A stretch of DNA of 32,000 bases from Gammaproteobacteria bacterium (lineage in GTDB: Bacteria > Pseudomonadota > Gammaproteobacteria > SZUA-229): positions 1 through 32,000 of the forward strand of contig QIHT01000241.1 in NCBI GenBank assembly GCA_003229115.1, given 5' to 3'. Numbering within the stretch: position 1 is the first letter of the stretch; each line of letters begins with the position of its first letter. Shown here in pieces: positions 6,115 through 27,480 of the stretch. A model generated the notes under the pieces. It ran no database searches, was not told where the DNA came from, and saw only the letters and a list, made by a program, of their open reading frames with translations. The position numbers and the translations under genes are program-made.

Positions 6115-6852
6115 ATGAAACCTGCTGTTAATACAAACGCTCGATTGCCAACTATTTCTATCGTAATCCCTGTCTATAATGAAATTAAATCCATAGAAAA
6201 ATTTATAAATAACTTCTTTAGCATCGCCGAGGATGTGGACCAAGTCGTAATTGTTGATGGTATGAGCAGCGATGGCACGTATGACAAACTGAAATCAATG
6301 CTGGCGGCCCGTCCAGACAATCATCATATATGTTTATTGCAGTCAGAGCCTGGTCGAGCCAGGCAAATGAATGTTGGCGCAGAAAAATGTTCTGGTGATG
6401 CCATCGTATTTTTACACGTTGATACGACATTGCCAGGTGATGGCATTGCCTTGATTCAGGAAAAATTAAATGATGGTGCTTACTGGGGACGGTTTGATGT
6501 CAGGCTGGACGCCGAACCAGTAATGTACAGAGTCATCGAAACCATGATGAACTGGCGATCGGCATGCACGAGTATCGTGACTGGTGACCAGGCAATTTTT
6601 ATCAGGACTGATGTGTTTAAAATGATAGGCGGTTTTCCTGTTATACCTTTGATGGAAGACATAGCCATATCAGATCGACTGAAAACAGTAGCAGCGGCCA
6701 AGCGTATTAAAAGTCGTGTATTGACGTCTGCACGCAGATGGCAGGCACAGGGTGTTTGGTCGACAATTTTACTAATGTCAGTGTTTCGCCTTGGTTATTG
6801 GTTCGGCATAAAGCCGGAACGCCTGGCGCGCTGGTATTATAAAACCAGTTAA
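6115..6852 (+). CDS. Family 2 glycosyltransferase-like protein of the rSAM/selenodomain-associated (arsenosugar-type) class
   Basis: 245 aa. ISIVIPVYNE start, DGxSxDGT and LHVD (DxD-like) motifs of GT2. Abuts the next gene (stop 6850-6852, next ATG at 6853) and lies opposite an ArsS-type radical SAM gene. Confidence 0.8.
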   Translation: MKPAVNTNARLPTISIVIPVYNEIKSIEKFINNFFSIAEDVDQVVIVDGMSSDGTYDKLKSMLAARPDNHHICLLQSEPGRARQMNVGAEKCSGDAIVFLHVDTTLPGDGIALIQEKLNDGAYWGRFDVRLDAEPVMYRVIETMMNWRSACTSIVTGDQAIFIRTDVFKMIGGFPVIPLMEDIAISDRLKTVAAAKRIKSRVLTSARRWQAQGVWSTILLMSVFRLGYWFGIKPERLARWYYKTS

Positions 6853-7488
6853 ATGCCCAATCCTGCGCTCGTAATATTTGCCAAGCAACCTGTTCCTGGA
6901 AAAGTAAAAACGCGGTTAGCGAAACACTGTGGTGATGAGGTGGCAGCGGAAATTGCCTCGGTATTACTAACGGAAACGATTAAGTTGTGCGCCCAGGCCT
7001 GGCCGGGCCCGCAAACATTATATTGTTGGCGAGATCCCGATCACGATTTATTCAGGCATCTGTCAGGGAAGTACAATATCGACCTGGCAAGTCAATGCCC
7101 GGGCTCGTTGGGAGACAAAATGTTTGACGCGTTGTTAACCGAGAGCAAACGTTATGGCAGTGCTGCGGTAATGGGTACAGATGTACCGCATTGTTCGGAG
7201 AAAATATTGCGCCAGGCTTACGGGTTATTGTCAGCGGGAAAGTCAGTCATTGGCCCTGCCAGTGACGGGGGTTATTATTTCATTGGTTTGCAACATCCCG
7301 ACAAAAAACTTTTTGCAGGACTCAATTGGGGCGGTGAGAATGTTTTCGACGAGACATTAACTCGTGCCAGGGACATTGGCACATCATTTGATAAATTAGA
7401 GGTATTACGGGATATTGATAATTGGCAGGACCTGGTAAATGCCTCTTTAAAAGTGCCATGCTTGAAAAAATTCGTGGGTGAAAGCTAG
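6853..7488 (+). CDS. DUF2064-type (CofC-like) transferase, rSAM/selenodomain-associated class
   Basis: 211 aa. LVIFAKQPVPGKVKTRL N-terminus and GxDxP / DGGYYFIGL motifs typical of DUF2064 nucleotidyltransferase-fold proteins. Confidence 0.8.
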   Translation: MPNPALVIFAKQPVPGKVKTRLAKHCGDEVAAEIASVLLTETIKLCAQAWPGPQTLYCWRDPDHDLFRHLSGKYNIDLASQCPGSLGDKMFDALLTESKRYGSAAVMGTDVPHCSEKILRQAYGLLSAGKSVIGPASDGGYYFIGLQHPDKKLFAGLNWGGENVFDETLTRARDIGTSFDKLEVLRDIDNWQDLVNASLKVPCLKKFVGES

Positions 7489-7510
7489 TCGTCTTGAAAA
7501 CAGAACCAGT

Positions 7511-8500
7511 TCAGGCCAACGCACCACCGCAACTACTACCCGCGCCTGCTGTGCAACCAAAACAGTGATCACCCACACCTATATCTTTTCCATTCAGACT
7601 GTAATCAGTCATATCCCAGAGCTGCACAGCTGTATTAGCTGACATTGGCAGGTTTATCATTTGGTTGAAATCACAGTCATAAACGTACCCTAACCAGTCG
7701 ACGCTAATGAGGTGCCGGCACATAAGACCGGGAATAGTCCCGGCATTAAAATTATCACTGAGTAATTTTTGGTAGGTATCGACTTGTCCGCTTTTCTCAA
7801 GATAGTGTTTGAACCTGCTAATCGGCAGGTTAGTTATAGTCAGTAAATTTGAAAACGAAATATCAGAATCTTCAGTAAGTCGTAGTCGATAATCATGCTC
7901 GAGTTCCCCCTGGTCTGGCGGCAGCGAAGCACCTCCCGGGTTGTAGACAAGATCAAGTTGGAGCGCCTCGTGCTTTCCATAACCTGCAGCATTAAGTTGT
8001 TTTAATGCCGTAATGCTTTTATCAAAAACACCCTTGCCCCGTTGGCTGTCGACATTGTCTTTCGTATAACATGGCAAAGAACAAACCAGTCTGATTTTTC
8101 GCTCTGCATACCAGCTCACCATATCTTCATAACCAGACTCCAGGAGAATGGATAAATTGCAGCGAGAGGTTACCTGTACTCCGTTATCTATAAATGCATC
8201 AACCAGTTTTTTAAAGTCCGGGTTCATCTCCGGGGCGCCACCGGTCAAGTCAACTTTTTGAATGCCCGCTTTTTTTGACCAATCCAGGATTTTCTCCATG
8301 GTATCCCAGGTCATAATTTCTGTACGTTTTGGACCTGCGTCGACATGGCAATGATTACAAGCCTGGTTGCAAAGTTTACCAAGATTAATTTGCAGCTCTG
8401 AAAGTTTTGCGCGGGTAAGCGGCCATAAGCCATGATCCTGCAGGGCTTCAGAAAAACCGATTAAGTTATTTTCAGGAATTTTATTGAGAACAGTTGCCAT
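7511..8500 (-). CDS. arsS: Radical SAM/Cys-rich domain protein, ArsS-like (Cys form, no in-frame TGA)
   Basis: 329 aa. CNQACNHC (CxxxCxxC) radical SAM cluster motif near the N-terminus. C-terminal Cys-rich tail HCFGCTAGAGSSCGGALA. Confidence 0.85.
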   Translation of the reverse strand: MATVLNKIPENNLIGFSEALQDHGLWPLTRAKLSELQINLGKLCNQACNHCHVDAGPKRTEIMTWDTMEKILDWSKKAGIQKVDLTGGAPEMNPDFKKLVDAFIDNGVQVTSRCNLSILLESGYEDMVSWYAERKIRLVCSLPCYTKDNVDSQRGKGVFDKSITALKQLNAAGYGKHEALQLDLVYNPGGASLPPDQGELEHDYRLRLTEDSDISFSNLLTITNLPISRFKHYLEKSGQVDTYQKLLSDNFNAGTIPGLMCRHLISVDWLGYVYDCDFNQMINLPMSANTAVQLWDMTDYSLNGKDIGVGDHCFGCTAGAGSSCGGALA

Positions 8501-8523: not shown

Positions 8524-8555
8524 AATAAAACCCCTGCGTGATAACTCAGCAGGGG
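8524..8555 (-). terminator. Rho-independent terminator ending the peptide-to-DoxX operon
   Basis: On the minus strand: cccctgc, an 11-nt loop, gcagggg, then ttttatt. Lies about 40 nt after the DoxX stop and before the arsS-like start. Confidence 0.6.
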
Positions 8556-8592
8556 CAATATTGGTGAATAATAATAATTAAATAAAATCAAT

Positions 8593-9183
8593 TTACTTTT
8601 TGAAATAATTAGCTATCCAGTAATCGGCACTAACATAACGACCACTGCCTATGAAGAGCAAAACAAGCAACATAATAAAGTAAGTAGCGGCAAACTCAAT
8701 ACCATTATTCAAAATAACAAAATTTCCTTTTTCAGTAAGCCAGTCATAGTTGCCATATTCCTGCAAAAGGCCTTTTGCGGCCTGCAAACGTTCACTCGCA
8801 GCAATAGTACGTTCAGTAGCAAACAAGCCACTGCCTTCGGCGATTGCCAGCCAACCATGCTGCCAGTGAACTGAAGCAGCTGCGACAACCATGGTGAACA
8901 TTAGTGGAATCGAAAACCAGCGTACGCCCAGGCCAAATAACAAGGCAAGCGAACCAACCAGTTCAGTCAATGTGGCAAGCCAGGCCAATAATGCCGGCAG
9001 CGGCAGCCCCAGGCCCCATTCCGGGTTACCAAACCATTCGATGGTACTTTCCATGGAGCCGAGCTTATTATTTCCTGCCATCCAGAAAACAGGGAACAGG
9101 TACAAGCGCAATGCCAGCGGTCCCAGAAAATCAACTACCCTGGTTTTGTTTAATAATTCTTGTGCTTTTATTAAATAGTTCAT
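8593..9183 (-). CDS. DoxX family membrane protein
   Basis: 196 aa with four hydrophobic segments. LRLYLFPVFWMAG and LTELVGSLALLFGLG motifs as in DoxX/DoxD-like proteins. Confidence 0.85.
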   Translation of the reverse strand: MNYLIKAQELLNKTRVVDFLGPLALRLYLFPVFWMAGNNKLGSMESTIEWFGNPEWGLGLPLPALLAWLATLTELVGSLALLFGLGVRWFSIPLMFTMVVAAASVHWQHGWLAIAEGSGLFATERTIAASERLQAAKGLLQEYGNYDWLTEKGNFVILNNGIEFAATYFIMLLVLLFIGSGRYVSADYWIANYFKK

Positions 9184-9305
9184 TTAATTTCTCCATCTGG
9201 TACTGGGCTAGTTTATTTTTCTTATCGATATCTAATATCTGACTCGGCAGTGTTGAATTGGTTCCATGAGGCCATTGTATTCACCAGAATAATCACGAAT
9301 AATTA

Positions 9306-10811
9306 TTATTTTGGTGGACTAATTTCTGGAAATACCTCATCAAGACCAACCGAGCGTCCATTTCCCAGGGACAGGCGTGCATGGTAACGACGTAATTTCC
9401 GTGGATCATTGACCCCGCAAGAATGGGCAATAATACCTACTTCGTGCACTATATTTTTTGCATAGTGGGCCACGCGTACCGCCTTGGTTTTGGGTACCAG
9501 GCCTTTTTGTAATCTTGGATTATGGGTAGTAATACCAGTTGGGCAGGTATCTTTATTGCATTGCAGTGCCTGTATGCAGCCGAGGGCAAACATAAACCCG
9601 CGAGCCGAGACAATAAAATCTGCACCGGCACAAAGTGCCCAGGCCATGTCAGTGGGCGTAATTAATTTCCCGGAGGTAATAACTTTAATCCTGTCTCTCA
9701 GGCCGTGTTCACAAAGTTTATCCAGGACCCGTGGCAACGCTTCACGTACAGGCAGGCCCATGCTGTCAATAAGGCTCATGGGGGCAGCACCGGTACCACC
9801 TTCACAGCCGTCAATGGTAATAAAATCTGGCGCACACTCTTTGCCTTGTTTATTTATTTCAGCAAAAAAATTATCCAGCCAGCCATAAGCCCCAATGACC
9901 ATTTTTATACCTGTTGGTTTTCCCGTCACTTTACGCACATGGGTTATCATAGCCAATAAATTTGGTACTGAATTAATTTCCGGGTGGCGGTTGGGACTGA
10001 TAGAATCTTCATGGTGAGGAATGCCCCGGATGCTGGCAATTTCCTTGTTGACCTTAATGCCGGGCAGGATTCCGCCCTTGCCGGGTTTTGCTCCCTGGCT
10101 CAATTTAATTTCAAACATACGAACTTGTTGATGAGCGGCAATCGTACGTAACTTTTCATCATCAAGTTTTCCATTGTCATCCCGCACGCCGTACTTGGCC
10201 GTACCAATCTGGAAAACAATATCGGCGCCACCTTCCAGGTGATAGGGAGACAAACCACCTTCGCCGGTATTCATCCAACAACCGGCCATGCGTGCGCCAT
10301 TAGACAGGGCCAGCACTGCAGGTTTGGATATGGCGCCAAAACTCATGCCGGAGATATTAAATAATGATGATGTGGTGTAGGGCTGGTTACAGTCTGGACC
10401 AATAGTGACAGGTTTTGCTTCAACAACGTCCTGTTCCAGTGTCGGAAATGGACAATTAACAAAATATACCGTGCCTGCCGGTTTCAGGTCCCTGGTTGAA
10501 CCAAAAGGCACCGTGCTATCTGTATTCTTGGCGGCATTATAAACCCAGGTTCGTTCAGCCCGGTTGAACGGCATTTCTTCACGGTCCATGGCAAAAAAGT
10601 ATTGTCGAAAAAATACACCCAGTTGTTCAAATAAAGATCGGAAACGACCAATAACCGGAAAATTTCGCCTGATGGCATGAGTTTTTTGCGAGACATCAAC
10701 AATGAAAATTATGATTATTGCCAATACGATCAGGCCAATAACAAAAACAAAGGTGTATACCAGCACCTCGAGGGTAGAGAAAAGCAGTTCGTGGGTTTCG
10801 GGAGATAACAT
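9306..10811 (-). CDS. FMN-binding glutamate synthase family protein (GltB FMN-domain-like) with N-terminal membrane anchor
   Basis: 501 aa. N-terminal TM helix (VYTFVFVIGLIVLAIIIIFIV). Then ISGMSFGA, NTGEGG, IKLSQGAKPGKGGILPG, DGCEGGTGAAP and GKL motifs characteristic of the glutamate synthase FMN domain. Confidence 0.88.
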   Translation of the reverse strand: MLSPETHELLFSTLEVLVYTFVFVIGLIVLAIIIIFIVDVSQKTHAIRRNFPVIGRFRSLFEQLGVFFRQYFFAMDREEMPFNRAERTWVYNAAKNTDSTVPFGSTRDLKPAGTVYFVNCPFPTLEQDVVEAKPVTIGPDCNQPYTTSSLFNISGMSFGAISKPAVLALSNGARMAGCWMNTGEGGLSPYHLEGGADIVFQIGTAKYGVRDDNGKLDDEKLRTIAAHQQVRMFEIKLSQGAKPGKGGILPGIKVNKEIASIRGIPHHEDSISPNRHPEINSVPNLLAMITHVRKVTGKPTGIKMVIGAYGWLDNFFAEINKQGKECAPDFITIDGCEGGTGAAPMSLIDSMGLPVREALPRVLDKLCEHGLRDRIKVITSGKLITPTDMAWALCAGADFIVSARGFMFALGCIQALQCNKDTCPTGITTHNPRLQKGLVPKTKAVRVAHYAKNIVHEVGIIAHSCGVNDPRKLRRYHARLSLGNGRSVGLDEVFPEISPPK

Positions 10812-10866
10812 TTTTTGCGGCCGCCTTTTACTTATAGTTTTATGACAGACATTTGGTAATAGAGTT

Positions 10867-11643
10867 CTATGTAATTTTTTTAATTTTTGTGCCTAAAATA
10901 ATATCGCGCTCATAAAGATCCGCAAAAATAGTTATACCGCCATTGACGACGACATCCGGGTCCGGGTGTTGCATCTCTTTGGCAACAGTCTCGAGTGCTT
11001 GCCTGCCGGTCATGAATTCATTTTCACTAAAAAGTTGCAGCAATCTTTGAGTCGCCGAATTAATTTCCAGAAAATGGACGGCATCATTTTTATCACGATA
11101 CACAACAATATGGGTTAAAGTTTCACCCGCCTGTGTTGGCTGATTTTCTTTGCTGAGTTGATGTACGGGGAACTTGTAACTCAGTGGCATAGCCAGGGGA
11201 GAAACGGCCGGGATGTCTGCAAATATATCACCATCACGATTTATGGCCTGCCAGTCAGGCTCTTCCTCAGAAAGTGACAGCACCAGCTCCATCCATTCAT
11301 AGTGGGCAAGCTCAAGCATAAACGGCGGGTCATCAGGATCAGTTCCCCGTTCGTTTTGCAGGTAATCGACAAACTCGGCCGGCATTTTGGGGAAATAAGG
11401 GGTATGGGCAAGGTGACGTGAAAAATAATCACGTATCATGGCCATCCAGCGGTCATCGCTTGTTAGTTCCTTTAGCACGGGAAAGCTGCTGGACATAAAA
11501 TCTTCAACGTTGTTAAAAAATAATTCCCGGTAAACGGCCATGCGGGTCTCGTCGACATCGGCTGGTGTAGCATTTCGTTCCGGATCGCGGATATTGGCCG
11601 TGAACTCATATTGCTTGCGAATGAAGGCTGGCTGGTCAGTCAT
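10867..11643 (-). CDS. hvfC: DUF2063-family partner protein (HvfC/BufC/MbnC-like RiPP maturation subunit)
   Basis: 258 aa. N-terminal QxxFxxxIRDPE...YRELFFNN pattern of DUF2063. Starts 2 nt after the DUF692 gene ends. Confidence 0.8.
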   Translation of the reverse strand: MTDQPAFIRKQYEFTANIRDPERNATPADVDETRMAVYRELFFNNVEDFMSSSFPVLKELTSDDRWMAMIRDYFSRHLAHTPYFPKMPAEFVDYLQNERGTDPDDPPFMLELAHYEWMELVLSLSEEEPDWQAINRDGDIFADIPAVSPLAMPLSYKFPVHQLSKENQPTQAGETLTHIVVYRDKNDAVHFLEINSATQRLLQLFSENEFMTGRQALETVAKEMQHPDPDVVVNGGITIFADLYERDIILGTKIKKIT

Positions 11644-11645
11644 TA

Positions 11646-12509
11646 TTAGACCCTGTGAGCAAGACGGGCAACACGCTGGTTAGCCCATTTTTCCTGAGAT
11701 GCCTTGATTCGATCTATTTCTCCCAGGAGTTCTGGTAACGGCGGAATGTTAAAATCACGTTCCAGCAGGGTAGGGGCGACACCAAAGGTTTCGTAAGCAA
11801 CATCGAGTAAATCCCAGACGTTACCAATGATTGGTGCGCCATGGGTATCAACCAGTAAGTCCTCGGCCTCTTCATAGTGACCGGCAATATGCATATAGGC
11901 AATGCGCTCACCGGGTAACGCCTTCAGGTAGGCCACGGGGTCATATTTGTGGTTAATACTATTAACGTAAATATTATTTACATCCAGCAATAAATCACAG
12001 TCAGCTTCTTTGATGACTGCGTTAATAAAATCAATTTCTTCCATCTCCTTGCCGGGTGCCGCGTAGTAAGAAACATTTTCAATGGCCATGCGCCGACCAA
12101 TGATGTCCTGTACTTGTTTGATGCGGCCAACGACATGTTTGATAGCTTCTTCAGTAAAAGGGATGGGCATCAAGTCATAAAGATGACCGTCGTCACTACA
12201 GTAACTTAAATGTTCCGAGTAACATTTTATTTGATGGATATCCATGAAGTTTCGTACTTCACGGACAAAATTTTCATCCAGGGGGGTCGGCCCGCCAATT
12301 GAAAGTGACAAGCCGTGGGTAACAAAGGGGTATTGCTCCGTAAATTTTCTCAGTTCTTTTCCGTACTTGCCGCCAATGCCTATCCAGTTTTCAGGCGCCA
12401 CTTCCAGGAAGCTTACTTGCTCCGGAGAAAACTCAGCCAGCGGGCCCATGAGGGCCCGCTTGAGTCCGAGTCCGGCACCCTGTACAGGGAATTTGCCAGG
12501 TTGCGACAT
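11646..12509 (-). CDS. hvfB: DUF692 multinuclear non-heme iron oxidative enzyme (MNIO; HvfB/BufB/MbnB-like)
   Basis: 287 aa TIM-barrel-like protein. Has HGLSLSIGG, SEHLS, ENVSYY, DVNNIYVN, IAGH, DTHG and LERD motifs of DUF692. Starts 8 nt after the peptide gene. Confidence 0.9.
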   Translation of the reverse strand: MSQPGKFPVQGAGLGLKRALMGPLAEFSPEQVSFLEVAPENWIGIGGKYGKELRKFTEQYPFVTHGLSLSIGGPTPLDENFVREVRNFMDIHQIKCYSEHLSYCSDDGHLYDLMPIPFTEEAIKHVVGRIKQVQDIIGRRMAIENVSYYAAPGKEMEEIDFINAVIKEADCDLLLDVNNIYVNSINHKYDPVAYLKALPGERIAYMHIAGHYEEAEDLLVDTHGAPIIGNVWDLLDVAYETFGVAPTLLERDFNIPPLPELLGEIDRIKASQEKWANQRVARLAHRV

Positions 12510-12517
12510 AACAGATC

Positions 12518-12847
12518 TTATTTCTTGTCGCCGCAGCTACCTTCTTTTCCTTTTCCTTTCTTGTCGCCGCAGCTTCCTTCGTTCATGCCTTTCTTCATTT
12601 TCTTGTCACCGCCGCACTTGCCTTCACCGCACTTGCCATCTTTTTTGGCTTTTTTGCCATCGTGCTTGCCATCCTTGTCTTTCATACCGCCACAACTACC
12701 TTCAGCGACTTTCATGTAACCTGAGCCAAGATCAGTGGTTGTAAACGGATTGCTGGCAGCATTAGCAACTGGCAGGCTGGATAAAGCGGCTACAACACTA
12801 ACGCCTACTGCGGCTGCGATTGGGGATAATTTCTTTGTTTTAGACAT
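12518..12847 (-). CDS. hvfA: Secreted Cys/Lys-rich RiPP precursor (HvfA / bufferin-like metallophore peptide)
   Basis: 109 aa. AGGAG RBS 7 nt upstream of the ATG. Sec signal peptide with an A-x-A site (PVANA|AS). NPF..DLGSGY segment. Five Cys, each in an x-G-(S/K)-C-G motif: EGSCG x3, DGKCG and EGKCG. Very Lys/Gly/Asp-rich core. Confidence 0.8.
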   Translation of the reverse strand: MSKTKKLSPIAAAVGVSVVAALSSLPVANAASNPFTTTDLGSGYMKVAEGSCGGMKDKDGKHDGKKAKKDGKCGEGKCGGDKKMKKGMNEGSCGDKKGKGKEGSCGDKK

Positions 12848-13083
12848 TTAAAAACTCCTGTTAAGTATCAATGATTTGTGTTTCCTTTCTAGGTCACCGC
12901 AGTTAGTCAGTGCCTAGGGCGGACAACTCTAACCCGATTCATCTGAATTCGGAAGTAGCTTATAAGTCTCCGCTACCAACACTCTGACCGACGGTGTCTG
13001 GCATAGTTCAAATTCCGCGTGAAAATATTGGGTTATTCCGGGGCATTATCAGGGTTATTTTTGCAGGGTTGTCTACTAGTACG

Positions 13084-13232
13084 CCTTATACAAACCCAGG
13101 ATCGTTGAGTACTGGTACAGGTGGTTGGCGTTATCCAGTGGGCCTTTTTCCCCATTGCCATAAAAACCAATTATTGGCAGGCGTTGATAACGGGACTTGA
13201 GCTGATTCAGGTCACGGTCGTGGTTACCAAAA
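13084..13232 (-). pseudogene. Displaced 3-prime fragment of the FIST gene (left copy of a 149-bp direct repeat)
   Basis: 130/149 identical without gaps (manual alignment) to 13918-14066 inside the FIST CDS. Minus-strand frame reads FGNHDRDLNQLKSRYQRLPIIGFYGNGEKGPLDNANHLYQYSTILGLYKAY*, against FGNRDRDLDQLKSRYPGLPIIGFYGNGEIGPLDNANHLYQYSTILGLYKEAPSKS* in the intact gene. An in-frame TAA lies just upstream of the homology. Confidence 0.75.
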
Positions 13233-13254: not shown

Positions 13255-13545
13255 TTAGAGGTGTTTCATTGGATCCATGCGTTGGTGAAGCACTCGCACA
13301 ATCGTGATGCCGTGGGGCTGTTTCACGTAGTACAGAATATGGTTTTCATAGGGAAAGCTGAGTAGCCCTTCAGATATGGCTTCCCGTTTGATTCCCAAAT
13401 CGGGATTGTCGGCAAGGAGTTGTCCACGGGCTCCCACTCCATCGAGATAGGCGAGGGTTTGTGATTCCCCCCATTGTTGGAGGCTATAGTCGATGATGTC
13501 TTTAAGATCGTGTTCGGCTTTTTCTGCAAATTTAAAATCAGCCAC
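13255..13545 (-). CDS. Type II toxin, RelE/ParE family
   Basis: 96 aa. Size, an 8-nt overlap with the upstream antitoxin gene and ParE-like sequence (DLKDIIDYSLQQWG, ILYYV....I.IVRVLHQRMD). Confidence 0.85.
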   Translation of the reverse strand: MADFKFAEKAEHDLKDIIDYSLQQWGESQTLAYLDGVGARGQLLADNPDLGIKREAISEGLLSFPYENHILYYVKQPHGITIVRVLHQRMDPMKHL

Positions 13546-13798
13546 TTACCCGTTTCCGTAGCTTGTCCATGACGGTTTTGCCATCCGTGATCTTACCGGC
13601 TTGCAGGTCGGCGATACCTTCCTGGATTGCCACTTTCAGATGTTCCTCTTTCAGTGCTTCAAACTGAGCATATTCCGAAGCCGAGATCACCACGGCAACG
13701 GGTTTGCCGTTTCGGTTGATTCTGACGGGACCATGCTGTGCTTTAATGAGGACTTCACCGAATTCACGTTTGGCATCACTGGCGCTGAGTATTTCCAT
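13538..13798 (-). CDS. Type II antitoxin, Phd/YefM family (start moved to ATG 13798; the track starts at TTG 13810)
   Basis: MEILSASDAKREFGEVLIKAQHGPVRINRNGKPVAVVIS is a typical Phd/YefM N-terminus. GAGG RBS 6 nt upstream of the ATG at 13798. Confidence 0.85.
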   Translation of the reverse strand: MEILSASDAKREFGEVLIKAQHGPVRINRNGKPVAVVISASEYAQFEALKEEHLKVAIQEGIADLQAGKITDGKTVMDKLRKRVSG

Positions 13799-13809
13799 AA
13801 CACACCTCA

Positions 13810-13839
13810 AATTAATTAAATTGATTAATTTAATTAATT
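13810..13839. promoter_or_regulatory. Putative TA operator: 13-bp perfect inverted repeat aattaattaaatt-gatt-aatttaattaatt
   Basis: Perfect 13-bp arms at 13810-13822 and 13827-13839, separated by 4 nt, about 12 nt upstream of the antitoxin ATG. Confidence 0.55.
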
Positions 13840-13897: not shown

Positions 13898-15025
13898 TCA
13901 GGATTTGGATGGAGCCTCCTTGTACAGCCCAAGTATCGTTGAGTACTGGTACAGGTGGTTGGCGTTATCCAGTGGCCCAATTTCACCATTGCCATAAAAG
14001 CCAATAATGGGCAGGCCCGGATAACGGGACTTGAGCTGATCCAGGTCACGGTCACGATTACCAAAAAAATGCGGCCCCCGTCCCATACAGGGAAATAACA
14101 AGGCAAAATCGGGGTCGGCGCCGAGCTGGCGGCCCGCACTGGTAATGGTTTGTTTAATGTCTCGTTCCGCCACCAGGGCATCGCGCATGCCCCAGAACAG
14201 GCGCTCGCCCGAACGGGGTTTGTCAGATAGCGTAATCGAACGATCACTGAGGTTGGCCGAGACAATATGGCTCAGGCGATAACGGCCTTCCTGGATGGCA
14301 GTTTCAGGATCGCCGAAGGTGAAGCCCCCGGTGAGTAAATGAAATGGCAGGGTTTTTTGTTTACGAATAGTGTCAGGCAGTGATTGTACCAATACATTTA
14401 AAGCCGGGTAATTGCCCATTTTCAGGACATCAAAACCCGCTACCTCGCCGACCTCGATGGGTGAGGTCAAAGCCCGCACCCCTTGCGAGGCGGTGATAAT
14501 ACCGGTCACGCCTTGCAATGAAGCCTCTGCCTGGCCTGCTTCAACGAGTCGACTGTTCGACCAGACCTTGAAGGGGCCTTGGCCAAAAATATCGCCGGAG
14601 ACAGCGCCAATACGGGCGGCAGGTATATCCAGCCAATCTGAATTCATGCCGGCGGGGGTACAGAAACTTAAAATATCCAGTTCATCATCATTACGATTGG
14701 GCGCTAAATCCAGGTGTAGGTCGCCACCGAAAACCATGGCGGCCGCGGCCGGGCTATCCAGGATCCACTCCTGATCGGTCAAGATACCGGCGCCGGTACA
14801 GCCAATCACCTGCATGCAACCGGCAGCCCCAGCAGCAGCCCGGATCGCCAGGCTGGGGTCCGGCGCGAACTCCGGTGTCAGCAACAGCAGCACGCTATTG
14901 GCACGTTTTATACCCGCTTTCGCAAGCGCCTGTTTGACGGCCCTGGCGGCGTGTTCCGGGTAAGGCTCGTCGCCATGACTCAGGCCGGTCGCAACCGGTA
15001 CTTGCGCGGTGTTAGCCGTATTCAT
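13898..15025 (-). CDS. FIST N/C-domain sensory protein
   Basis: 375 aa. The C-terminal LLFPCMGRG...GFYGNGEIGP pattern is typical of FIST_C. ATGA start/stop overlap with nth upstream. Confidence 0.8.
   Translation of the reverse strand: MNTANTAQVPVATGLSHGDEPYPEHAARAVKQALAKAGIKRANSVLLLLTPEFAPDPSLAIRAAAGAAGCMQVIGCTGAGILTDQEWILDSPAAAAMVFGGDLHLDLAPNRNDDELDILSFCTPAGMNSDWLDIPAARIGAVSGDIFGQGPFKVWSNSRLVEAGQAEASLQGVTGIITASQGVRALTSPIEVGEVAGFDVLKMGNYPALNVLVQSLPDTIRKQKTLPFHLLTGGFTFGDPETAIQEGRYRLSHIVSANLSDRSITLSDKPRSGERLFWGMRDALVAERDIKQTITSAGRQLGADPDFALLFPCMGRGPHFFGNRDRDLDQLKSRYPGLPIIGFYGNGEIGPLDNANHLYQYSTILGLYKEAPSKS
13918..14066 (-). repeat. Right copy of the 149-bp direct repeat (functional 3-prime end of the FIST gene)
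   Basis: See 13084-13232. 19 substitutions and no indels between the copies. Confidence 0.8.
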
Positions 15026-17723: not shown

Positions 17724-19771
17724 CTATTTTACCCGCATACCCGGTTGGGCGCCGTCATCGGGGGACAAAATCCACAGGTCTTTTTTACCAGGACCAGCAG
17801 CCAGGACCATGCCTTCAGATAAACCAAAGCGCATTTTACGCGGGGCCAGGTTGGCAACCATGACCGTCAGTTTGCCTTCCAGGTCTGCCGGGTCATAGGC
17901 CTCTTTAATCCCGGCAAAGACATTACGGGTCTCGCCGCCAATATCCAGTGTCAGTTGTAATAATTTATCTGCGCCTTCTACGTGGGCCGCTTTAATTATT
18001 TTCGCGATGCGCAAATCAACTTTTGCAAACTCGTCATAACTAATCTCATCCTTGATCGGGTCAGCGGCCAGTGGGCCGGTTGTTACGGTTGTTGCAGTGG
18101 TTTCTTCGGTCATGGTTAATCCTTCTTGAGCGGCTGTGAGCATGGCTTCGATTGATTTGGGTTCAATACGTTTTGCCAGGTGTTTAAACTTGTTGATAGA
18201 GGTTGGGAATGTTTTTCTGTCTTCCCAATTAAATTCTCGATCAAAACCGAACAATTCACGGGCAACACAGCCGGTGAGTGCAGGTAATATCGGTGTGAGC
18301 CAAATAGAGATGAGATAAAAGGAATGCAAACTGCGTGAGCAGACTTGATGCAATTTATCTCTTTGATCCGGGTCTTTTGCTAGCACCCAGGGCTCGTGTT
18401 TATTAATATATTCATTCGTAACATCAGCAATGTGCATGATGCTGCGTACTGCTTTGCTATATTCTCGCTGTTCAAAGGCTTCGAGAATTGAATCGCTCTC
18501 ACCACCTGTTGCGATTGGGTCAGTCATGTCAGATTCTGGTAGCAACTTGCCATCAAAATATTTACCAATAAAATTCGCCGTGCGACTGGCGATGTTGACA
18601 TATTTTCCAACCAGGTCACTATTTATCCTGGCAGTAAAATCATCAAAGTTAAGATCAATATCTTCAATACCATCAGACAACTTGGCGGCATAGTAATAAC
18701 GCAAGTATTCCGGGTTCAAATGATCGAGATAAGTGCTGGCATTAATAAACGTACCCCGTGACTTGGACATTTTTTTACCGTTGACGGTTAAAAAACCATG
18801 GGCATAAATGGCCGTGGGTATTCGATACCTGGCTATTGGCAGGATTGCAGGCCAGAACAGGGTAGAATATCTTTACCAATAAAATGATAAAGCTCGGTAG
18901 TGTCTTGTTTCCACCATTCGTCAAAATCCAGTCCCTTTTTATTGCACAGATCTTTAAAGCTGGCCATGTAACCCATGGGGGCATCGAGCCAGACATAAAA
19001 ATATTTACCCGGTGCATCGGGGATTTCAAATCCAAAGTAAGGCGCATCGCGGGAAATATCCCAGTCCTGGAGGCCGGCCTCCAGCCACTCGTTCATTTTA
19101 TTGGCCACTTCCGGTTGCACATGTTCTTCCAGAAAATTGCGTAACTGATCTGTGCATTTTGAAATTTTGAAAAAGTAATGCTCTGACTCTTTTTCGATGG
19201 GTTTGGCGCCAGTGATCACTGACACCGGGTTTTTTAATTCAGTGGCGTCATAGGTGGCGCTACACACTTCGCAGTTATCGCCGTACTGATCTTTGGCATC
19301 GCAGTTAGGGCAGGTGCCCTTAATAAAACGATCCGGTAAAAACATTTTCTTATCGGGATCGTAAAACTGGTTTATCGTTTTGTTTTCTATGTAACCTGCA
19401 TCTTGTAGTGACTTATAAATTGATTCAACAAATTCACGGTTTTCATCAGAGTGGGTGCTGTAATAATTATCGAATTGCACACCAAAGGCCTGAAAATCGG
19501 CCTGGTGTTCAGCATTCATTTTTTCGATCAGTGCTTCCGGAGTAATGCCTTCCTGCTGGGCCCGCAACATCACCGGCGTGCCGTGGGCATCATCGGCGCA
19601 GACGTAATAAATCTCATGGCCTTGCATGCCCGGGAAACGCATACGCAGAAAACGCACCCAAATATCGGTCTGGATGTATTCCACCAGGTGTCCCAGGTGA
19701 ATGGCACCATTGGCATAGGGCAGGGCGCTGGTTACCAGGATTTTTCGCGGTTTGTTAGCGGCTTGGGTCAT
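17724..19771 (-). pseudogene. metG: Methionine--tRNA ligase, disrupted by a frameshift near 18861-18865
   Basis: ORF 18833-19771 encodes the MetRS N-terminal half (HLGH motif, Zn knuckle CPNC...CEVC) up to HFIGKDI. ORF 17724-18770 encodes the C-terminal half (KMSKS, anticodon-binding and tRNA-binding domains). The second frame already reads [10 protein letters not shown]...[15 protein letters not shown] from 18872. Only 5 nt lie between the Ile codon of GKDI and the LFW codons, where E. coli MetRS has 5 codons (VYFHS). Confidence 0.9.
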
Positions 19772-21413: not shown

Positions 21414-22010
21414 TTGAAACTCGCTGAACTTACAACCATATCCGCTGGGCACCCATTTAGAGGGAAAATACCAGAAAAATCCGGTAGCGGTATCCGTGCA
21501 GTGCAGATGAAAGACATCTCTATTGATCAGGGGGTTTGCTGGGATAGTGTTATCGAGACAGAGCTTGCTGGCAAAAAACAACCTGACTGGCTAATAAATG
21601 GCGATATCCTTTTTGCTGCCAGAGGCTCGCGTAATTATGCCGTTCTGATTAATCAGGTTACAGGACAGGTTGTTAGTGCCCCGCATTTCTATATTTTACG
21701 TGTGAATGAGTCATCGCTTATGCCAGAATTTCTGGTCTGGCAGCTCAACCAAAAACCCCTGCAAAACTACTTTGACAAGTTAGCCCAGGGAAAATTAACC
21801 AAGAGTATTACACGCTCAATGCTAGAACACGCTGAAATCACCGTGCCACCACTAGAGAAGCAAACACAAATATTAGGATTGCATAAAACCTTGTTACAGG
21901 AAAAAAAGCTTTATGCCGTACTTGGCAGCAACGCAGATAAATTAATGAATTCGATTGCCAACGAACTTGTGGCAGGTAAAACACTACCGTTAAAAGGAAT
22001 GAAAATATGA
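21414..22010 (+). CDS. hsdS: Half-size type I restriction-modification specificity subunit (single target-recognition domain; TTG start)
   Basis: 198 aa. One TRD (GDILFAARGSRNYAVL, PHFYILRV, FLVWQL) followed by one conserved helix region (VPPLEKQTQILGLHKTLLQEKKLY). Stop overlaps the hsdM ATG (ATATGA). Confidence 0.7.
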   Translation: MKLAELTTISAGHPFRGKIPEKSGSGIRAVQMKDISIDQGVCWDSVIETELAGKKQPDWLINGDILFAARGSRNYAVLINQVTGQVVSAPHFYILRVNESSLMPEFLVWQLNQKPLQNYFDKLAQGKLTKSITRSMLEHAEITVPPLEKQTQILGLHKTLLQEKKLYAVLGSNADKLMNSIANELVAGKTLPLKGMKI

Positions 22011-23575
22011 GCACAACTATAAGCCCCAATCCGATTAGTCAGGACGCAATCAATAAAGCCCTATGGGGGGCGTGCGATACATTCCGTGGCACGGTCAGCG
22101 CCGATACCTATAAAGACTTTATCCTGACCATGTTATTCCTGAAATACATCTCGGATGTTTGGCAGGATCATTACGACAAATACCAGCAAGAGCATGGCGA
22201 CGAACCAGAACTCATTGTTGAGATGATGAAGAATGAGCGCTTTGTGCTGCCCGAAGGTTCAAGCTTTTACACCCTCTATGAAAAGCGTCATGAGCCGGGT
22301 AATGGTGAGCGTATCGACCAGGCGCTTCATGCATTGGAAGAAGCCAACGGTACCAAGCTCCGCGACGCATCAAAATCAGTGTTCCAGGATATAAGCTTTA
22401 ACACTGATAAGCTCGGTGAAGAAAAGCAAAAAAACACTATTCTTCGCCACCTGCTGGAAGACTTTGCCAAAGATGAGTTGAACCTTCGCCCCAGCCGTGT
22501 CGGCTCACTTGATGTTATCGGCAACGCCTATGAATATTTAATTAAGCACTTCGCCGCTGGTGGTGGGCAAAAAGCAGGGGAGTTTTATACCCCTCCCGAA
22601 GTATCTGACCTGATCGCAGAATTACTAGACCCACAAGAGGGCGACACAATCTCTGATCCGGCTTGTGGTTCTGGCTCATTGCTTATGAAATGTGGGCGTA
22701 AGATTAAAGCGCGTTTCAACAGCAAAAAATATGCGCTCTACGGGCAAGAGGCCATCGGTTCTACCTGGTCACTGGCCAAGATGAATATGTTCCTGCATGG
22801 GGAAGACAATCACAAAATCGAATGGGGCGACACTATCCGCAATCCAAAGTTATTGGATAAGAATGGTGGCTTGATGCATTTTGATATTGTCACCGCCAAT
22901 CCGCCATTCAGCCTCGATAAATGGGGCCATGATGAAGCGGATCATGATAAATATGGTCGTTTCCGTCGTGGCATACCACCAAAGACCAAAGGTGACTACG
23001 CCTTTATTCTGCATATGATCGAAACAATGAAACCCGCCTCGTCATCAAAACTGGGGGGACGCATGGGCGTGGTGGTTCCCCATGGTGTTTTGTTCCGTGG
23101 CAGTTCCGAAGGGAAAATTCGCACAAAATTGATTGAGGAAAACTTGTTGGATGCAGTGATAGGCTTGCCTGAAAAACTCTTTTACGGTACGGGCATACCC
23201 GCAGCGATTCTGATCTTCCGCAAGAATCGTCTTTCCCGCGAAGGCGGGAATCCAGGGGTTTTATTCATTGATGCCAGCCGCGAATGCAAAGCAGGTAAAA
23301 ACCAAAACCTGCTCACGCCAGAGAATATTGAAAAGATTGTTACGACCTATAAGGCGCGTAAAAGCGTCGATAAATACGCCTATCTGGCCAGTTTTGAAGA
23401 AATCCAGGAAAACGACTTTAACCTTAATATCCCGCGTTATGTTGATACCTTTGAGGAGGAAGAAGAAATTGATCTGATGGCAGTGCGTAAGGATAGGGAG
23501 GAATTGAAGGCGCAACTAGCTGAGCTGGAAACCGAAATGGATGGTTATCTAAAGGAGCTGGGTTATGGTTCCTGA
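22007..23575 (+). CDS. hsdM: Type I restriction-modification N6-adenine DNA methyltransferase subunit
   Basis: 522 aa. HsdM N-terminal domain, AdoMet motif DPACGSGSLL, catalytic NPPF (VTANPPFSL) and C-terminal coiled coil. Confidence 0.95.
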   Translation: MSTTISPNPISQDAINKALWGACDTFRGTVSADTYKDFILTMLFLKYISDVWQDHYDKYQQEHGDEPELIVEMMKNERFVLPEGSSFYTLYEKRHEPGNGERIDQALHALEEANGTKLRDASKSVFQDISFNTDKLGEEKQKNTILRHLLEDFAKDELNLRPSRVGSLDVIGNAYEYLIKHFAAGGGQKAGEFYTPPEVSDLIAELLDPQEGDTISDPACGSGSLLMKCGRKIKARFNSKKYALYGQEAIGSTWSLAKMNMFLHGEDNHKIEWGDTIRNPKLLDKNGGLMHFDIVTANPPFSLDKWGHDEADHDKYGRFRRGIPPKTKGDYAFILHMIETMKPASSSKLGGRMGVVVPHGVLFRGSSEGKIRTKLIEENLLDAVIGLPEKLFYGTGIPAAILIFRKNRLSREGGNPGVLFIDASRECKAGKNQNLLTPENIEKIVTTYKARKSVDKYAYLASFEEIQENDFNLNIPRYVDTFEEEEEIDLMAVRKDREELKAQLAELETEMDGYLKELGYGS

Positions 23576-24770
23576 TGGTTGGGATATTCAAACAATCGCA
23601 GATATAGCTAAAGTTACGTCAGGAGGAACTCCAAGCCGTAAGAATGATGCGTATTGGGAGGGTAATATTCCTTGGGTTACGACTGCTGAAGTTCATTTTA
23701 ATACTATTGTAGATTCAGAGCAGAAAATAACTAAATCTGGGCTTGATAATTCTTCTGCCAAGTTATTTCCTTCAGATACCATCCTAATGGCTATGTATGG
23801 TCAAGGAAAAACTCGTGGGCAGGTGGCAAAGCTAGGTATAGAGGCGAGTACTAATCAAGCTTGTGCCGCCATCTTACTCAAAGATAATTTAAGCACGGAC
23901 TATTATTACTTATTCTTGCAAAGCCAATATAAGAATATTCGAAATTTAAGTAACTCGGGTGGACAGAAAAACTTGAGTGCGTGTTTAGTCAAGTCCATTA
24001 AAGTTCCTGTTCCACCGCTACTTGAACAAAAGAAAATCGCCAAAATCCTATCAACATGGGATCGAGCGATTGAGGTAACAGAAAAGCAAATCAGCAACAG
24101 TCAGCAACAAAAAAAGTTCCTTATGCATCAACTCCTCACCGGAAAAAAACGCCTTCCCGGCTTTAGTGGGGAGTGGGAAAAAAAAGTTCTTTCCAAGATA
24201 GCAGATATTGTGATGGGCTCGTCACCTAAGTCTGAGAGTTATAATAATCACGAAAAAGGCTTGCCCTTGTTACAGGGGAACGCAGATATAAAAAATAGAT
24301 TATCTGCTCCAAGAGCCTATACATCCCAAATAACTAAGGAATGTCTAGTTGATGATATTTTGCTTAGTGTTAGAGCGCCTGTTGGCGAAGTTTCTCGTTC
24401 AATTCATCACGCGTGTATCGGGCGAGGTATAGCGGCAATAAGAGCCAAAGAAGATACATCTCAAAATTATCTATATCAATGGCTATTGTACTTTGAACCA
24501 AAATGGGAAAAGTTGTCACAGGGGAGCACATTTGAAGCTGTTAATAGTAACGATATTAAAACATTGTATATTGATGTCCCTCAAAAAGAAGAACAACAAA
24601 AAATAGCTTTAATCCTTTTCTCTGCCGATAAAGAAATTGAAACCCTAAAGCAAAAACTTGAATGCGTCCGCCAAGAGAAAAAGGCACTAATGCAACAACT
24701 CCTCACCGGCAAACGCCGCGTGAAAATTGATGAGGATGATGTTCCTATCAAGGAGGTTGTGCGTGCCTGA
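23565..24770 (+). CDS. hsdS: Type I restriction-modification specificity subunit (two TRDs)
   Basis: 401 aa. Starts MVPDGW. Two TRDs, each followed by a conserved repeat (PPLLEQKKIAKILS...LMHQLLTGKKRL and PQKEEQQKIALILF...LMQQLLTGKRRV). 11-nt overlap with hsdM. Confidence 0.92.
   Translation: MVPDGWDIQTIADIAKVTSGGTPSRKNDAYWEGNIPWVTTAEVHFNTIVDSEQKITKSGLDNSSAKLFPSDTILMAMYGQGKTRGQVAKLGIEASTNQACAAILLKDNLSTDYYYLFLQSQYKNIRNLSNSGGQKNLSACLVKSIKVPVPPLLEQKKIAKILSTWDRAIEVTEKQISNSQQQKKFLMHQLLTGKKRLPGFSGEWEKKVLSKIADIVMGSSPKSESYNNHEKGLPLLQGNADIKNRLSAPRAYTSQITKECLVDDILLSVRAPVGEVSRSIHHACIGRGIAAIRAKEDTSQNYLYQWLLYFEPKWEKLSQGSTFEAVNSNDIKTLYIDVPQKEEQQKIALILFSADKEIETLKQKLECVRQEKKALMQQLLTGKRRVKIDEDDVPIKEVVRA
24752..24768 (+). 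repeat. Junction repeat copy 1 (GGAGGTTGTGCGTGCCT: RBS + GTG start)
   Basis: Matches 25830-25846 (GGAGGTTGCGAGTGCCT) at 15/17 positions. Both copies contain the stop-proximal codons of the upstream gene plus GGAGG, 6 nt and GTG-CCT of the downstream gene. Confidence 0.7.
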
Positions 24771-25848
24771 TATTATTTCATTCGCAGATGCTATTGCAGA
24801 CTCAGAGCAATATAAAAAACGTCATTTGTTGTTAGGGAATGGCTTTAGTATTGGCTGCCGTGCCGACATATTCCATTATGAGTCTCTCTTTGGGGAAGCT
24901 GATTTTTCGGGTATGCCTGAGGCGAAACAGGTTTTTGAGTCTTTGCAGACCCAGGATTTTGAAGTAGCAATTCGAGCGCTTGAGAGTGGCTCAAAAATTC
25001 TTCCTGTCTATGCGCCCAATGATGTCGCAAGTGTTCAGGCAATGAGCAAACACGCTATTGCTCTCAAAGATTTACTGGTGGCCACAATCGCTGGTAATCA
25101 TCCACCCAGCCCTAATGCTATAGACAATCAAGAGTTTTGGGCTTGTCGAAATTTTTTGAGTAATTTTCTTGCGCCTGATAAAAGCGGGTATGTATTCACC
25201 CTGAACTATGATCTGCTTCTGTATTGGGCATTAATGCATAGCGACAATCTTTTTGACGAGAAGACTGTTGAGCTTAAAAAAAATGATGGCTTTGATAATG
25301 ATGAAGATGACCCGGATGCTGATTATGTTGTCTGGCAAGGTGAAACAGCTGCGCATAGTGCAAATGTCCTTTTCCTGCATGGCGCGCTTCATCTTTTTGA
25401 TTCGGGCGCAGAGCTTCAAAAATATACCTGGGTTCGCAAGGGTGAGCCACTGGTAGATCAAGCACGTAGCGCAATAACTGCAAATAAATTTCCACTTTTT
25501 GTGGCCGAAGGCACGAGCACCCAGAAGAAAAACAAAATTCGTCACAATGCATATTTATATCAGTGTTTCAAGGTACTGACGGCCAATGCACAGACTGGCA
25601 CACATTGTTTTTTCATCTTTGGCCATTCATTGGCTGATAATGACGATCACATTCTTAAGCGTCTTGGCAAAGGTCGTTTCAAAAAATTATATGTAGGTAT
25701 TTTCGGAGAAGCAGATAATCCAGAAAACAAAAAAGTAATTGCGCGTGCCAACGCTATAGCGGCGCTAAGGCATAATCGATATCCGCTTGAAGTTGTCTTT
25801 TTTGATTCTGCTTCTGCCAATGTTTGGGGGGAGGTTGCGAGTGCCTAG
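24763..25848 (+). CDS. DUF4917-like protein with SIR2-type motifs (candidate NAD-consuming defence effector); start at GTG 24763
   Basis: AGGAGG RBS 6 nt before GTG 24763. The protein begins MPDIISFADAI. Contains LLLGNGFS (GxGxS-like), TLNYD and LHG motifs, in the order and spacing seen in SIR2/SIR2_2-type domains. Overlaps the hsdS stop. Confidence 0.75.
   Translation: MPDIISFADAIADSEQYKKRHLLLGNGFSIGCRADIFHYESLFGEADFSGMPEAKQVFESLQTQDFEVAIRALESGSKILPVYAPNDVASVQAMSKHAIALKDLLVATIAGNHPPSPNAIDNQEFWACRNFLSNFLAPDKSGYVFTLNYDLLLYWALMHSDNLFDEKTVELKKNDGFDNDEDDPDADYVVWQGETAAHSANVLFLHGALHLFDSGAELQKYTWVRKGEPLVDQARSAITANKFPLFVAEGTSTQKKNKIRHNAYLYQCFKVLTANAQTGTHCFFIFGHSLADNDDHILKRLGKGRFKKLYVGIFGEADNPENKKVIARANAIAALRHNRYPLEVVFFDSASANVWGEVASA
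25830..25846 (+). repeat. Junction repeat copy 2 (GGAGGTTGCGAGTGCCT)
   Basis: See 24752-24768. Confidence 0.7.
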
Positions 25849-27354: not shown

Positions 27355-27377
27355 TGTGAGTCATAGTGGGTATGTCT

Positions 27378-27457: not shown

Positions 27458-27480
27458 CGAGAGCTAGAGGGGCAATTGCC

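Follow-up and report, generated by a model that had tools for sequence, protein, structure and literature searches.

The window analyzed here is a stretch of 32,000 nucleotides (nt) from a gammaproteobacterium of the lineage SZUA-229 (GenBank assembly GCA_003229115.1, contig QIHT01000241.1, positions 1 to 32,000). In it we found a five-gene operon that joins the four genes of a predicted Hvf-type metallophore cluster, hvfA, hvfB, hvfC and hvfX, to a gene for a protein predicted to bind flavin mononucleotide (FMN). This additional gene, which we call the FMN gene, is flanked by hvfC and hvfX. Only a minority of Hvf and Buf clusters have it as an accessory, but it recurs among them independently of gene order, and its tightest link is to the DoxX family, to which HvfX belongs. 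Taken as a whole, the locus is probably best explained as an operon in which the FMN and DoxX proteins form a redox module that serves a periplasmic metallophore, although we hold this explanation with no more than moderate confidence.

A five-gene operon with an Hvf core

The operon consists of five co-directional open reading frames (ORFs) on the minus strand. Their coordinates match those of a preliminary description of this DNA, which had an AGGAG-led peptide gene first and a terminator last. The first gene (12518..12847) encodes a HvfA-like precursor peptide of 109 amino acids (aa). It is followed by hvfB (11646..12509; 287 aa), encoding a peptide maturase of the MNIO family (DUF692), and by hvfC (10867..11643; 258 aa), encoding its DUF2063 partner. 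HvfC is also assigned a recognition element (RRE) for precursors of peptides that are made by ribosomes and modified after translation (RiPPs). The fourth gene is the FMN gene (9306..10811; 501 aa), whose product is predicted to be anchored in the membrane and to carry FMN and a [3Fe-4S] cluster, and shares homology with the FMN domain of the glutamate synthase large subunit. The last gene is hvfX (8593..9183; 196 aa), which encodes a membrane protein of the DoxX family.

The intergenic gaps measure 8 nt (precursor gene to hvfB, the same distance as was originally described), 2 nt (hvfB to hvfC), 55 nt (hvfC to the FMN gene) and 122 nt (FMN gene to hvfX). An AGGAG sequence occurs 8 nt 5′ of the ATG of the precursor gene, and GGAG is found 8 nt 5′ of the ATG of hvfX. 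We detected neither a terminator nor a stable structure in the 55-nt and 122-nt gaps. At the end of the operon, a hairpin on the minus strand (8555..8524) folds with −19.6 kcal/mol (z = −3.87), a value equalled by 1 of 200 shuffles, and UUUUAUU follows it. These properties mark the terminator that had been proposed at 8524-8555 as an intrinsic one. A simple terminator scan missed this hairpin because it takes only loops of 3-8 nt. The five genes form an operon that runs from a candidate promoter of the extracytoplasmic function (ECF) sigma type, discussed below, to this terminator.

Profile searches place the core proteins in known families. In Pfam, the MNIO matches PF05114 (MbnB_TglH_ChrH; 1.4e-105), HvfC matches DUF2063 (PF09836; 2.9e-25) as well as NGO1945_C (PF22106; 5.7e-28), and HvfX matches DoxX (PF07681; 1.5e-20). 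All of these matches are far beyond chance, as is that of the FMN protein given below. The proteins also pass the NCBIfam cut-offs for HvfB (NF003818; 443.9 bits, cut-off 360), HvfC (NF050145; 300.3 bits, cut-off 142) and HvfX (NF050144; 235.6 bits, cut-off 80). By contrast, the MNIO stays under the cut-offs of the BufB model (272.8 bits, cut-off 310) and the MbnB model (43.4 bits, cut-off 325). Given that HvfB, HvfC and HvfX exceed curated equivalog cut-offs, that the precursor has a homologous leader and that its Cys motifs are conserved, the core very likely belongs, as an ordinary representative, to the published oxazolin/Buf_EGKCG (HvfABCX) family. The locus had been described as an HvfABC- or bufferin-type RiPP metallophore operon extended by DoxX and an FMN enzyme, and the cut-offs passed by HvfB, HvfC and HvfX uphold this view of its core. 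The core operon brings nothing new, as such clusters have already been catalogued by the thousands.

The HvfBC proteins of Haemophilus influenzae modify the Cys residues in EGKCG repeats, and copper is bound by the mature peptide (PMC11252979). Initially assigned as oxazolone/thioamide, the modification has been reassigned to 5-thiooxazole (bioRxiv 10.64898/2026.07.17.739211, 10.64898/2026.06.05.730506). Formation of the 5-thiooxazole is a four-electron oxidation that uses a mixed-valent diiron cofactor and requires HvfC (bioRxiv 10.64898/2026.07.17.739211). The earlier statement that DUF692 and DUF2063 proteins together turn Cys residues into heterocycles stands as a family role; for Hvf, the oxazolone/thioamide assignment does not. 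In the window, the cytoplasmic, multi-iron HvfB and its RRE partner HvfC would recognize the NPF..SGY leader of HvfA. They would then oxidize the five Cys residues of the (E/D)G(S/K)CG motifs to 5-thiooxazoles, for which the four-electron reaction predicts a change of −4 Da per Cys. The Sec system would export HvfA, and removal of the signal peptide would yield a metallophore that binds Cu(I) in the periplasm. For the family, what HvfB and HvfC do is established, as are export by Sec, the binding of copper and ECF control, and we infer all of these here by homology.

The precursor has a Sec-type signal peptide with a cleavage site between LPVANA and AS, the NPF..SGY leader and exactly five Cys residues, in the motifs EGSCG, DGKCG, EGKCG, EGSCG and EGSCG. 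The peptide is therefore as originally described. It has no Pfam hit and does not match DUF2282, BufA or BufA2. It also remains below the cut-offs of the NCBIfam equivalog model for HvfA (NF050188; 19.9, cut-off 95) and of the KCGExKCG_twice domain (NF050137; 18.1, cut-off 19.5) since the tandem unit KCGEGKCG occurs in it just once. The HvfA models are tuned to the Haemophilus-like repeat, so that failing them lowers the status of the peptide as an HvfA equivalog, but leaves its homology to the family unaffected. Since the precursor falls below the cut-offs of the available models, we built a hidden Markov model of the signal and leader portion, using 35 canonical precursors that each contain EGKCGEGKCG two or more times and come from independent metagenome loci. 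The leader in the window scores 59.2 bits with this model, and the best of 1000 shuffles scores 13.2. In an alignment of orthologues, N33-P-F, S42-G-Y and the G-x-C-G units are invariant, and the number of Cys residues ranges from 5 to 12. Both the leader and the Cys motifs are therefore conserved in orthologous precursors.

The short length of the precursor and its mixed motifs had been put forward as distinguishing traits of this locus, but they are not. The H. influenzae HvfA has 95 aa (PMC11252979), the lengths of precursors in the Buf_EGKCG family range from 31 to 506 aa (PMC12452194) and the canonical precursors have 100-150 aa. EGSCG is the second commonest motif variant, with 83 of the 470 motifs (~18%) in 66 related precursors. 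As judged from its sequence, the precursor belongs to the Buf_EGKCG/oxazolin family, and neither its length nor its mix of motifs is unusual.

The FMN protein and its link to DoxX

The FMN protein matches PF01645 (Glu_synthase; 1.2e-87) over residues 136-467. It also matches GltA of PDB 7mfm (6.4e-36), with an alignment that continues through QGAKPG, the next arginine and Cx5Cx4CP. The Cx5Cx4CP motif binds the 3Fe-4S cluster in GltS (PDB 7mfm comparison). Q239, K242, R262, GGTGAAP and C412/C418/C423-P are invariant in 83 homologues, and a single N-terminal hydrophobic helix with basic residues after it is likewise conserved. Because the basic residues come after the helix, the catalytic domain is predicted to be cytoplasmic and tethered to the membrane by this helix. 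These observations agree with the membrane-anchored FMN protein with a glutamate-synthase domain that was originally described. Its predicted fold is fixed by homology to solved GltS structures. However, the protein is not a glutamate synthase, because it contains only the FMN domain and lacks the amidotransferase, central and GXGXG domains, and its score with the GltB model NF008730 is 126 bits (cut-off 1047). The family comprises at least 8,000 scored candidates (all E ≤ 1e-20), which are annotated only as “FMN-binding glutamate synthase family protein”. In the literature, we found no functional study of proteins with this designation.

One conceivable role for the FMN protein is that of a tailoring enzyme, which would perform an extra oxidation or reduction of the heterocycles or of neighboring residues before the peptide is exported. 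Flavoenzymes such as azoline dehydrogenases are generally known to tailor other RiPPs, and the FMN gene is located within a biosynthetic operon. However, the fold and the invariant pocket fit a site for a small 2-oxo acid or imino acid and do not fit peptide binding, and the domain search revealed no RRE or peptide-binding domain. Moreover, the precursors of FMN-containing and FMN-free loci exhibit no systematic difference in their motifs, and many FMN homologues have no precursor nearby. We therefore regard a tailoring role as highly improbable.

We studied the neighborhoods of FMN genes in the 80 closest homologues of at least 597, one per species genome, which are 64-74% identical. Genes within 7 kb were identified by tblastn and by profiles built for the purpose. 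Many contigs of related loci are truncated, and we also consider a full-flank set of 44 loci that have 5 kb or more to each side of the gene. An MNIO or DUF2063 partner is found within 7 kb of the FMN gene in 26 of the 80 loci, and DoxX in 32. In the full-flank set, MNIO is present in 18 loci (41%) and DoxX in 20. The DoxX gene is co-directional with the FMN gene and less than 350 nt from it in 25 of the 32 loci with DoxX, and the two genes overlap in loci L050 and L009.

The gene order A-B-C-FMN-X (letters other than FMN denote hvf genes) is found in the window and in L001, L005, L007, L017, L025, L035, L048 and L053. A survey of neighborhoods for this five-gene order had been suggested, and the order is also kept in relatives whose FMN proteins are 92% (L161), 81% (L162) and 73% (L001) identical to that of the window. 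In L161 and L162, the flanking synteny is likewise kept. The corresponding identities in these two loci are 95% and 82% for HvfB and 88% and 68% for HvfC, so the FMN protein is as conserved there as HvfB, and more conserved than HvfC. Other orders are FMN-X-B-C (L015, L016 and L128), B-C-X-FMN (L021, L052, L088 and L110) and A-B-C-(TPP)-(ALDH)-FMN-X (L004 and L013). The last of these includes a thiamine pyrophosphate (TPP) enzyme and an aldehyde dehydrogenase (ALDH). In L062, L063, L069 and L079, the FMN gene is beside a bufferin-type partner cluster with a DUF2282-like precursor, and the MNIO in L062 passes the BufB cut-off (362 bits, cut-off 310).

We considered that these arrangements could derive from a single inherited synteny block (prfB-lysS-hvf-FMN). 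This explanation was rejected, since the linked FMN genes are scattered over a neighbor-joining tree of FMN proteins, four or more gene orders are found among them, and their partner clusters belong to two MNIO subfamilies.

A separate observation concerns L009 (3493-8952), in which an EG(A/S/T)CG-repeat precursor gene is followed by genes for the TPP enzyme, ALDH, the FMN protein and DoxX. The 7 kb to each side contain neither an MNIO gene nor one for DUF2063, and the peptide is either used unmodified or served by a maturase whose gene is elsewhere.

The reverse question is how often Hvf clusters have an FMN gene. Among the 80 closest metagenome relatives of HvfB, 36 loci are informative, and an FMN gene is found in 3 of these (~8%). 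L081 (VAPH01047640.1) was left out of this count, as it matches the window with 99.9% identity over 4.8 kb and represents the same contig. The FMN enzyme had been noted as a trait that distinguishes this locus. This is correct insofar as it is confined to a minority of close HvfB loci, but it is not a one-off insertion, given that it recurs, chiefly with DoxX. It is likely that the FMN gene is functionally coupled to DoxX and to the cluster.

The coupling could, in principle, be to the maturase. In such a scenario, the FMN protein would be a dedicated cytoplasmic reductase that sets the mixed-valent Fe(II)/Fe(III) state of HvfB, keeps the Cys residues of HvfA reduced before their modification, or both. 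In vitro, HvfBC need dithiothreitol or ascorbate for the iron cofactor and the Cys thiols, and the active state of HvfB is a mixed-valent diiron (bioRxiv 10.64898/2026.07.17.739211). The FMN gene directly follows hvfBC in the window, and its product has a motif for a one-electron carrier (3Fe-4S) and a catalytic domain that is predicted to be cytoplasmic. However, the catalytic cycle restores the mixed-valent state without external electrons (bioRxiv 10.64898/2026.07.17.739211), and a membrane anchor is not needed to reduce a soluble enzyme. Additionally, the tightest and most order-invariant neighbor of the FMN gene is DoxX and not HvfB, FMN-DoxX pairs occur without an MNIO within 7 kb (L009, L029 and L050) and most HvfB loci do without the FMN gene. 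A reductase for the maturase is therefore unlikely.

In the reading that we prefer, HvfX, the DoxX protein, has the FMN/[3Fe-4S] protein as its redox partner, with the latter at the cytoplasmic face of the membrane. The FMN protein would oxidize a cytoplasmic substrate of the 2-amino-acid or 2-oxo-acid type, with glutamate as the obvious candidate. A small cytoplasmic substrate is suggested because the pocket is of the 2-oxo/2-amino-acid type. Electrons would pass from FMN to the 3Fe-4S cluster and then to DoxX or to the quinone pool. The periplasmic reducing power could convert Cu(II) to Cu(I) for capture, or could keep the thiolates of the thiooxazoles reduced. In related loci, the TPP decarboxylase-like enzyme and ALDH might dispose of the 2-oxo acid.

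There are systems with comparable elements. In Fre-MsrQ-MsrP, a cytoplasmic flavoprotein and a membrane redox protein feed electrons to the periplasm, and DoxD is part of a thiosulfate:quinone oxidoreductase. Other EGKCG clusters contain molybdo-oxidoreductase and ferric-reductase genes (PMC12452194), which are a parallel to a membrane redox module. As for DoxX, the modification does not require it (PMC11626156, PMC11252979). Nonetheless, this specific electron conduit is a tentative proposal, and the odds are against it being correct in detail. It is a yet more speculative idea that the FMN protein and DoxX constitute a two-component oxidoreductase that Hvf and Buf thiooxazole clusters have repeatedly recruited for periplasmic reducing power. 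If true, it would be the first functional assignment both for the widespread DoxX of these clusters and for a very large orphan flavoprotein family.

The main competing explanation arises from other neighbors of the FMN gene. Beyond DoxX, MNIO, DUF2063 and precursors, its recurrent neighbors are an acetolactate-synthase-like TPP enzyme (14 of 80 loci) and ALDH (11 of 80), and the remaining ones represent housekeeping synteny. The TPP enzyme scores 796 bits with NF006187 (cut-off 509), and the closest solved relative of the ALDH is ALDH21. Examples of TPP and ALDH genes beside FMN-DoxX are in L013 (3852-5486), L004 (5486-6925), L062, L069, L009 and L128. The FMN protein could thus be an ordinary metabolic enzyme, namely a membrane-bound dehydrogenase of amino acids or 2-oxo acids that works with the TPP enzyme and ALDH and shares only its neighborhood and transcript with the hvf genes. 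A possible route would lead from glutamate to 2-oxoglutarate, succinate semialdehyde and succinate. It is consistent with this explanation that the 2-oxo-acid-binding residues of glutamate synthase are invariant in FMN homologues, and that the identity of 64-74% extends across classes, as is typical of housekeeping proteins.

By contrast, a purely metabolic role does not explain why the FMN gene is inside the cluster, between hvfC and hvfX, or why its association with DoxX and MNIO persists in four or more different gene orders. The link involves two MNIO subfamilies (~35% identity), in both Gammaproteobacteria and Alphaproteobacteria. A random gene would have an MNIO within ±7 kb in less than ~1% of cases (a rough estimate that was not computed), as opposed to the 41% that we observed. 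Finally, we searched the window for the TPP enzyme and ALDH and both are absent, yet FMN-DoxX is kept. We therefore consider a purely metabolic enzyme to be a serious but rather improbable alternative.

Several points weigh against a redox module of the FMN and DoxX proteins, and some of them equally favor a metabolic enzyme. The substrate of the FMN protein, the direction of the electrons and any contact between the FMN protein and DoxX are all inferred. No fusion to DoxX or to other domains was found in the 120 best FMN homologues, all of which are single-domain proteins of ~500 aa. More than half of the full-flank FMN loci (26 of 44) have no MNIO within 7 kb, and the FMN gene is missing from 33 of the 36 informative close HvfB loci. 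Neither the FMN gene nor the MNIO cluster therefore depends on having the other in its vicinity. The FMN gene of L003 and L075 stands alone after prfB-lysS, a placement that suggests an independent function, and the TPP and ALDH neighbors hint at 2-oxo-acid chemistry or small-molecule metabolism. An ECF-like motif (see below) occurs 5′ of FMN genes elsewhere in 2 of 78 loci, compared with 6 on the reverse strand and an expectation of 4.4 based on shuffles. As regards DoxX, its deletion in Caulobacter caused no copper phenotype (PMC11626156). Furthermore, the gene calls in related loci come from a simple ORF caller, and the neighborhoods are those of the best 80 of at least 597 relatives.

Promoter and surrounding genes

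The candidate promoter of the operon is on the minus strand at 12986..13009, where GAACTA-N16-GTC is followed by AGA. It is located about 140-160 nt 5′ of the hvfA ATG. In HvfB-centered, independent metagenome loci, AAC-N17-GTC is present within 300 nt 5′ of hvfA in 31 of 58 cases, for the most part at a distance of 65-190 nt from the start codon. None of the 58 loci has it on the reverse strand, and in shuffles the count averages 3.7 and reaches 9 at most. The motif is also found in 12 of 15 genome loci, and its consensus upstream of hvfA is GAAACTTT-N14-GTCnTA. It has the form of an ECF-sigma promoter, which agrees with the RpoE2/SigE (ECF) control of homologous operons in Haemophilus and Neisseria (PMC7907618). 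No sigma factor genes are present in the window. A scan of the window for sigma-70 promoters found fewer sites than in shuffles, and an Rfam search of the window, including the ~140-nt hvfA leader, detected no RNA family at gathering thresholds.

We noticed a similar motif, GAACT-N16-GTC, on the minus strand at 10844-10867, exactly in the gap between hvfC and the FMN gene, which could correspond to a separate ECF promoter for the FMN gene and hvfX. We treat it as a chance occurrence. An ECF-like motif is absent 5′ of the FMN gene in L015 and L016, where this gene leads the operon.

In L060 (5585-6121), a locus of the FMN-X(-B-C) type, a terminator-like GC hairpin and a T-run are found between hvfA and the FMN gene. 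This element may be an attenuator that sets the ratio of precursor to enzyme. The window has no such element, because its hvfB begins 8 nt after hvfA.

Upstream of the operon, a ParE/Phd toxin-antitoxin pair (13255-13810, minus strand) is located between a FIST gene and hvfA. The pair is flanked by a 149-nt direct repeat (13084-13232 and 13918-14066; 87% identical), which duplicates the 3′ end of the FIST gene. Both the ParE/Phd insertion and the duplication are shared with L161, but not with L162 or L001. This distribution therefore indicates a recent insertion just 5′ of the hvfA promoter.

Directly behind the hvf terminator is an arsenosugar-type trio of genes (6115-8500). They encode the radical-SAM protein ArsS (7511-8500; TIGR04167, 436.8 bits), a TIGR04282/DUF2064 glycosyltransferase-like protein (6853-7488) and a GT2 glycosyltransferase (6115-6852). 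The trio is also present in L161 and L162, and ArsS and the DUF2064 protein are also in L001.

The methionyl-tRNA synthetase gene (17724-19771, minus strand) is divided into two ORFs of 312 and 348 aa in different frames, with the break near 18865. Approximately 10 nt appear to be missing in the conserved GKDILNFHALFWPA region, and MetG is intact in L161 (674 aa). The split either reflects an error in the assembly or marks a pseudogene.

A type I restriction-modification system occupies 21414-31508 and includes hsdM (22007-23575), hsdS (23565-24770) and hsdR (27481-30762). Between hsdS and hsdR are a DUF4917 gene, an unannotated ORF and RhuM-family genes. An additional short HsdS-like ORF (21414-22010) and, after hsdR, a YgjP-like metallopeptidase gene also occur in this region.

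Known systems and significance

The hvfABCX operon of nontypeable H. influenzae (oxazolin; PMC11252979) has the same four gene families as the window, a Sec-exported repeat precursor of ~100 aa and the ECF control that is presumed here. However, its DoxX gene is first, whereas hvfX is last in the window. Its HvfA has three AEGKCGEGKCG repeats, in contrast to the five Cys residues in mixed EGSCG/DGKCG/EGKCG motifs, and it lacks the 501-aa FMN/[3Fe-4S] gene that is between hvfC and hvfX in the window.

A survey has catalogued ~2,000 Buf_EGKCG precursors, which have Sec signals and come mostly from Pseudomonadota (PMC12452194). The clusters contain the precursor with MNIO, DUF2063 and DoxX in varied combinations, and a few have oxidored_molybd or ferric reductase genes (PMC12452194). 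They share the core and the Sec-signal precursor with the window, but a Glu_synthase/FMN gene is not mentioned in the survey. The survey assigned unknown genes to a cluster if they were within 10 bp of a known gene (PMC12452194). The 55-nt and 122-nt gaps in the window do not conform to this rule, and the FMN gene would therefore have been excluded.

The bufferins Buf1 and Buf2 (bufABCD; PMC11626156) resemble the window in that an MNIO and a DUF2063 protein make thiooxazoles on a Sec-exported, copper-binding peptide, with DoxX as an accessory. Unlike in bufferins, the MNIO in the window is under the BufB cut-off and the precursor does not match DUF2282 or BufA2. In methanobactin biosynthesis (MbnABC), an MNIO and a partner likewise oxidize the Cys residues of a ribosomal peptide to a copper-binding heterocycle. 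However, this partner is MbnC, the peptide has a leader that is not a Sec signal, the chemistry is that of oxazolone/thioamide and the MNIO in the window failed the MbnB model.

The FMN protein shares the FMN TIM-barrel region, QGAKPG, the arginine and Cx5Cx4CP with the FMN domain of GltB/GltA (PDB 7mfm, 1ea0 and 1ofd). It differs from GltB in having no beta subunit, in its added N-terminal helix and in two changes in the pocket (E to K245 and Q to I248). The Fre-MsrQ-MsrP system follows the same logic that we propose here, in which a cytoplasmic flavin enzyme passes electrons to an integral membrane partner or to quinones and thereby supports protection of the periplasm from stress, but the proteins of the proposed module exhibit no sequence relationship to Fre or MsrQ.

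The terms FMN, flavin, glutamate synthase and PF01645 are absent from the main texts of PMC12452194, PMC13097082, PMC11252979 and PMC11626156, and the supplements of PMC13097082 and PMC12452194 do not mention FMN or glutamate synthase. A search for “glutamate synthase” in the MNIO papers covered found nothing, and the only two papers naming both DoxX and glutamate synthase were irrelevant. Provisionally, we regard the FMN extension of Hvf/Buf clusters as new and previously unreported. A practical consequence is that cluster surveys based on a 10-bp intergenic rule can miss conserved accessory genes.

The extension bears on two open questions of the field, namely the role of DoxX in bufferin and oxazolin clusters, and how Cu(I) is supplied to a periplasmic metallophore or the metallophore is kept in its reduced state. 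The recurrent pairing offers a concrete candidate partner for DoxX, a predicted membrane-tethered FMN/Fe-S enzyme. It also provides a first functional context for the very large, uncharacterized “FMN-binding glutamate synthase family”.

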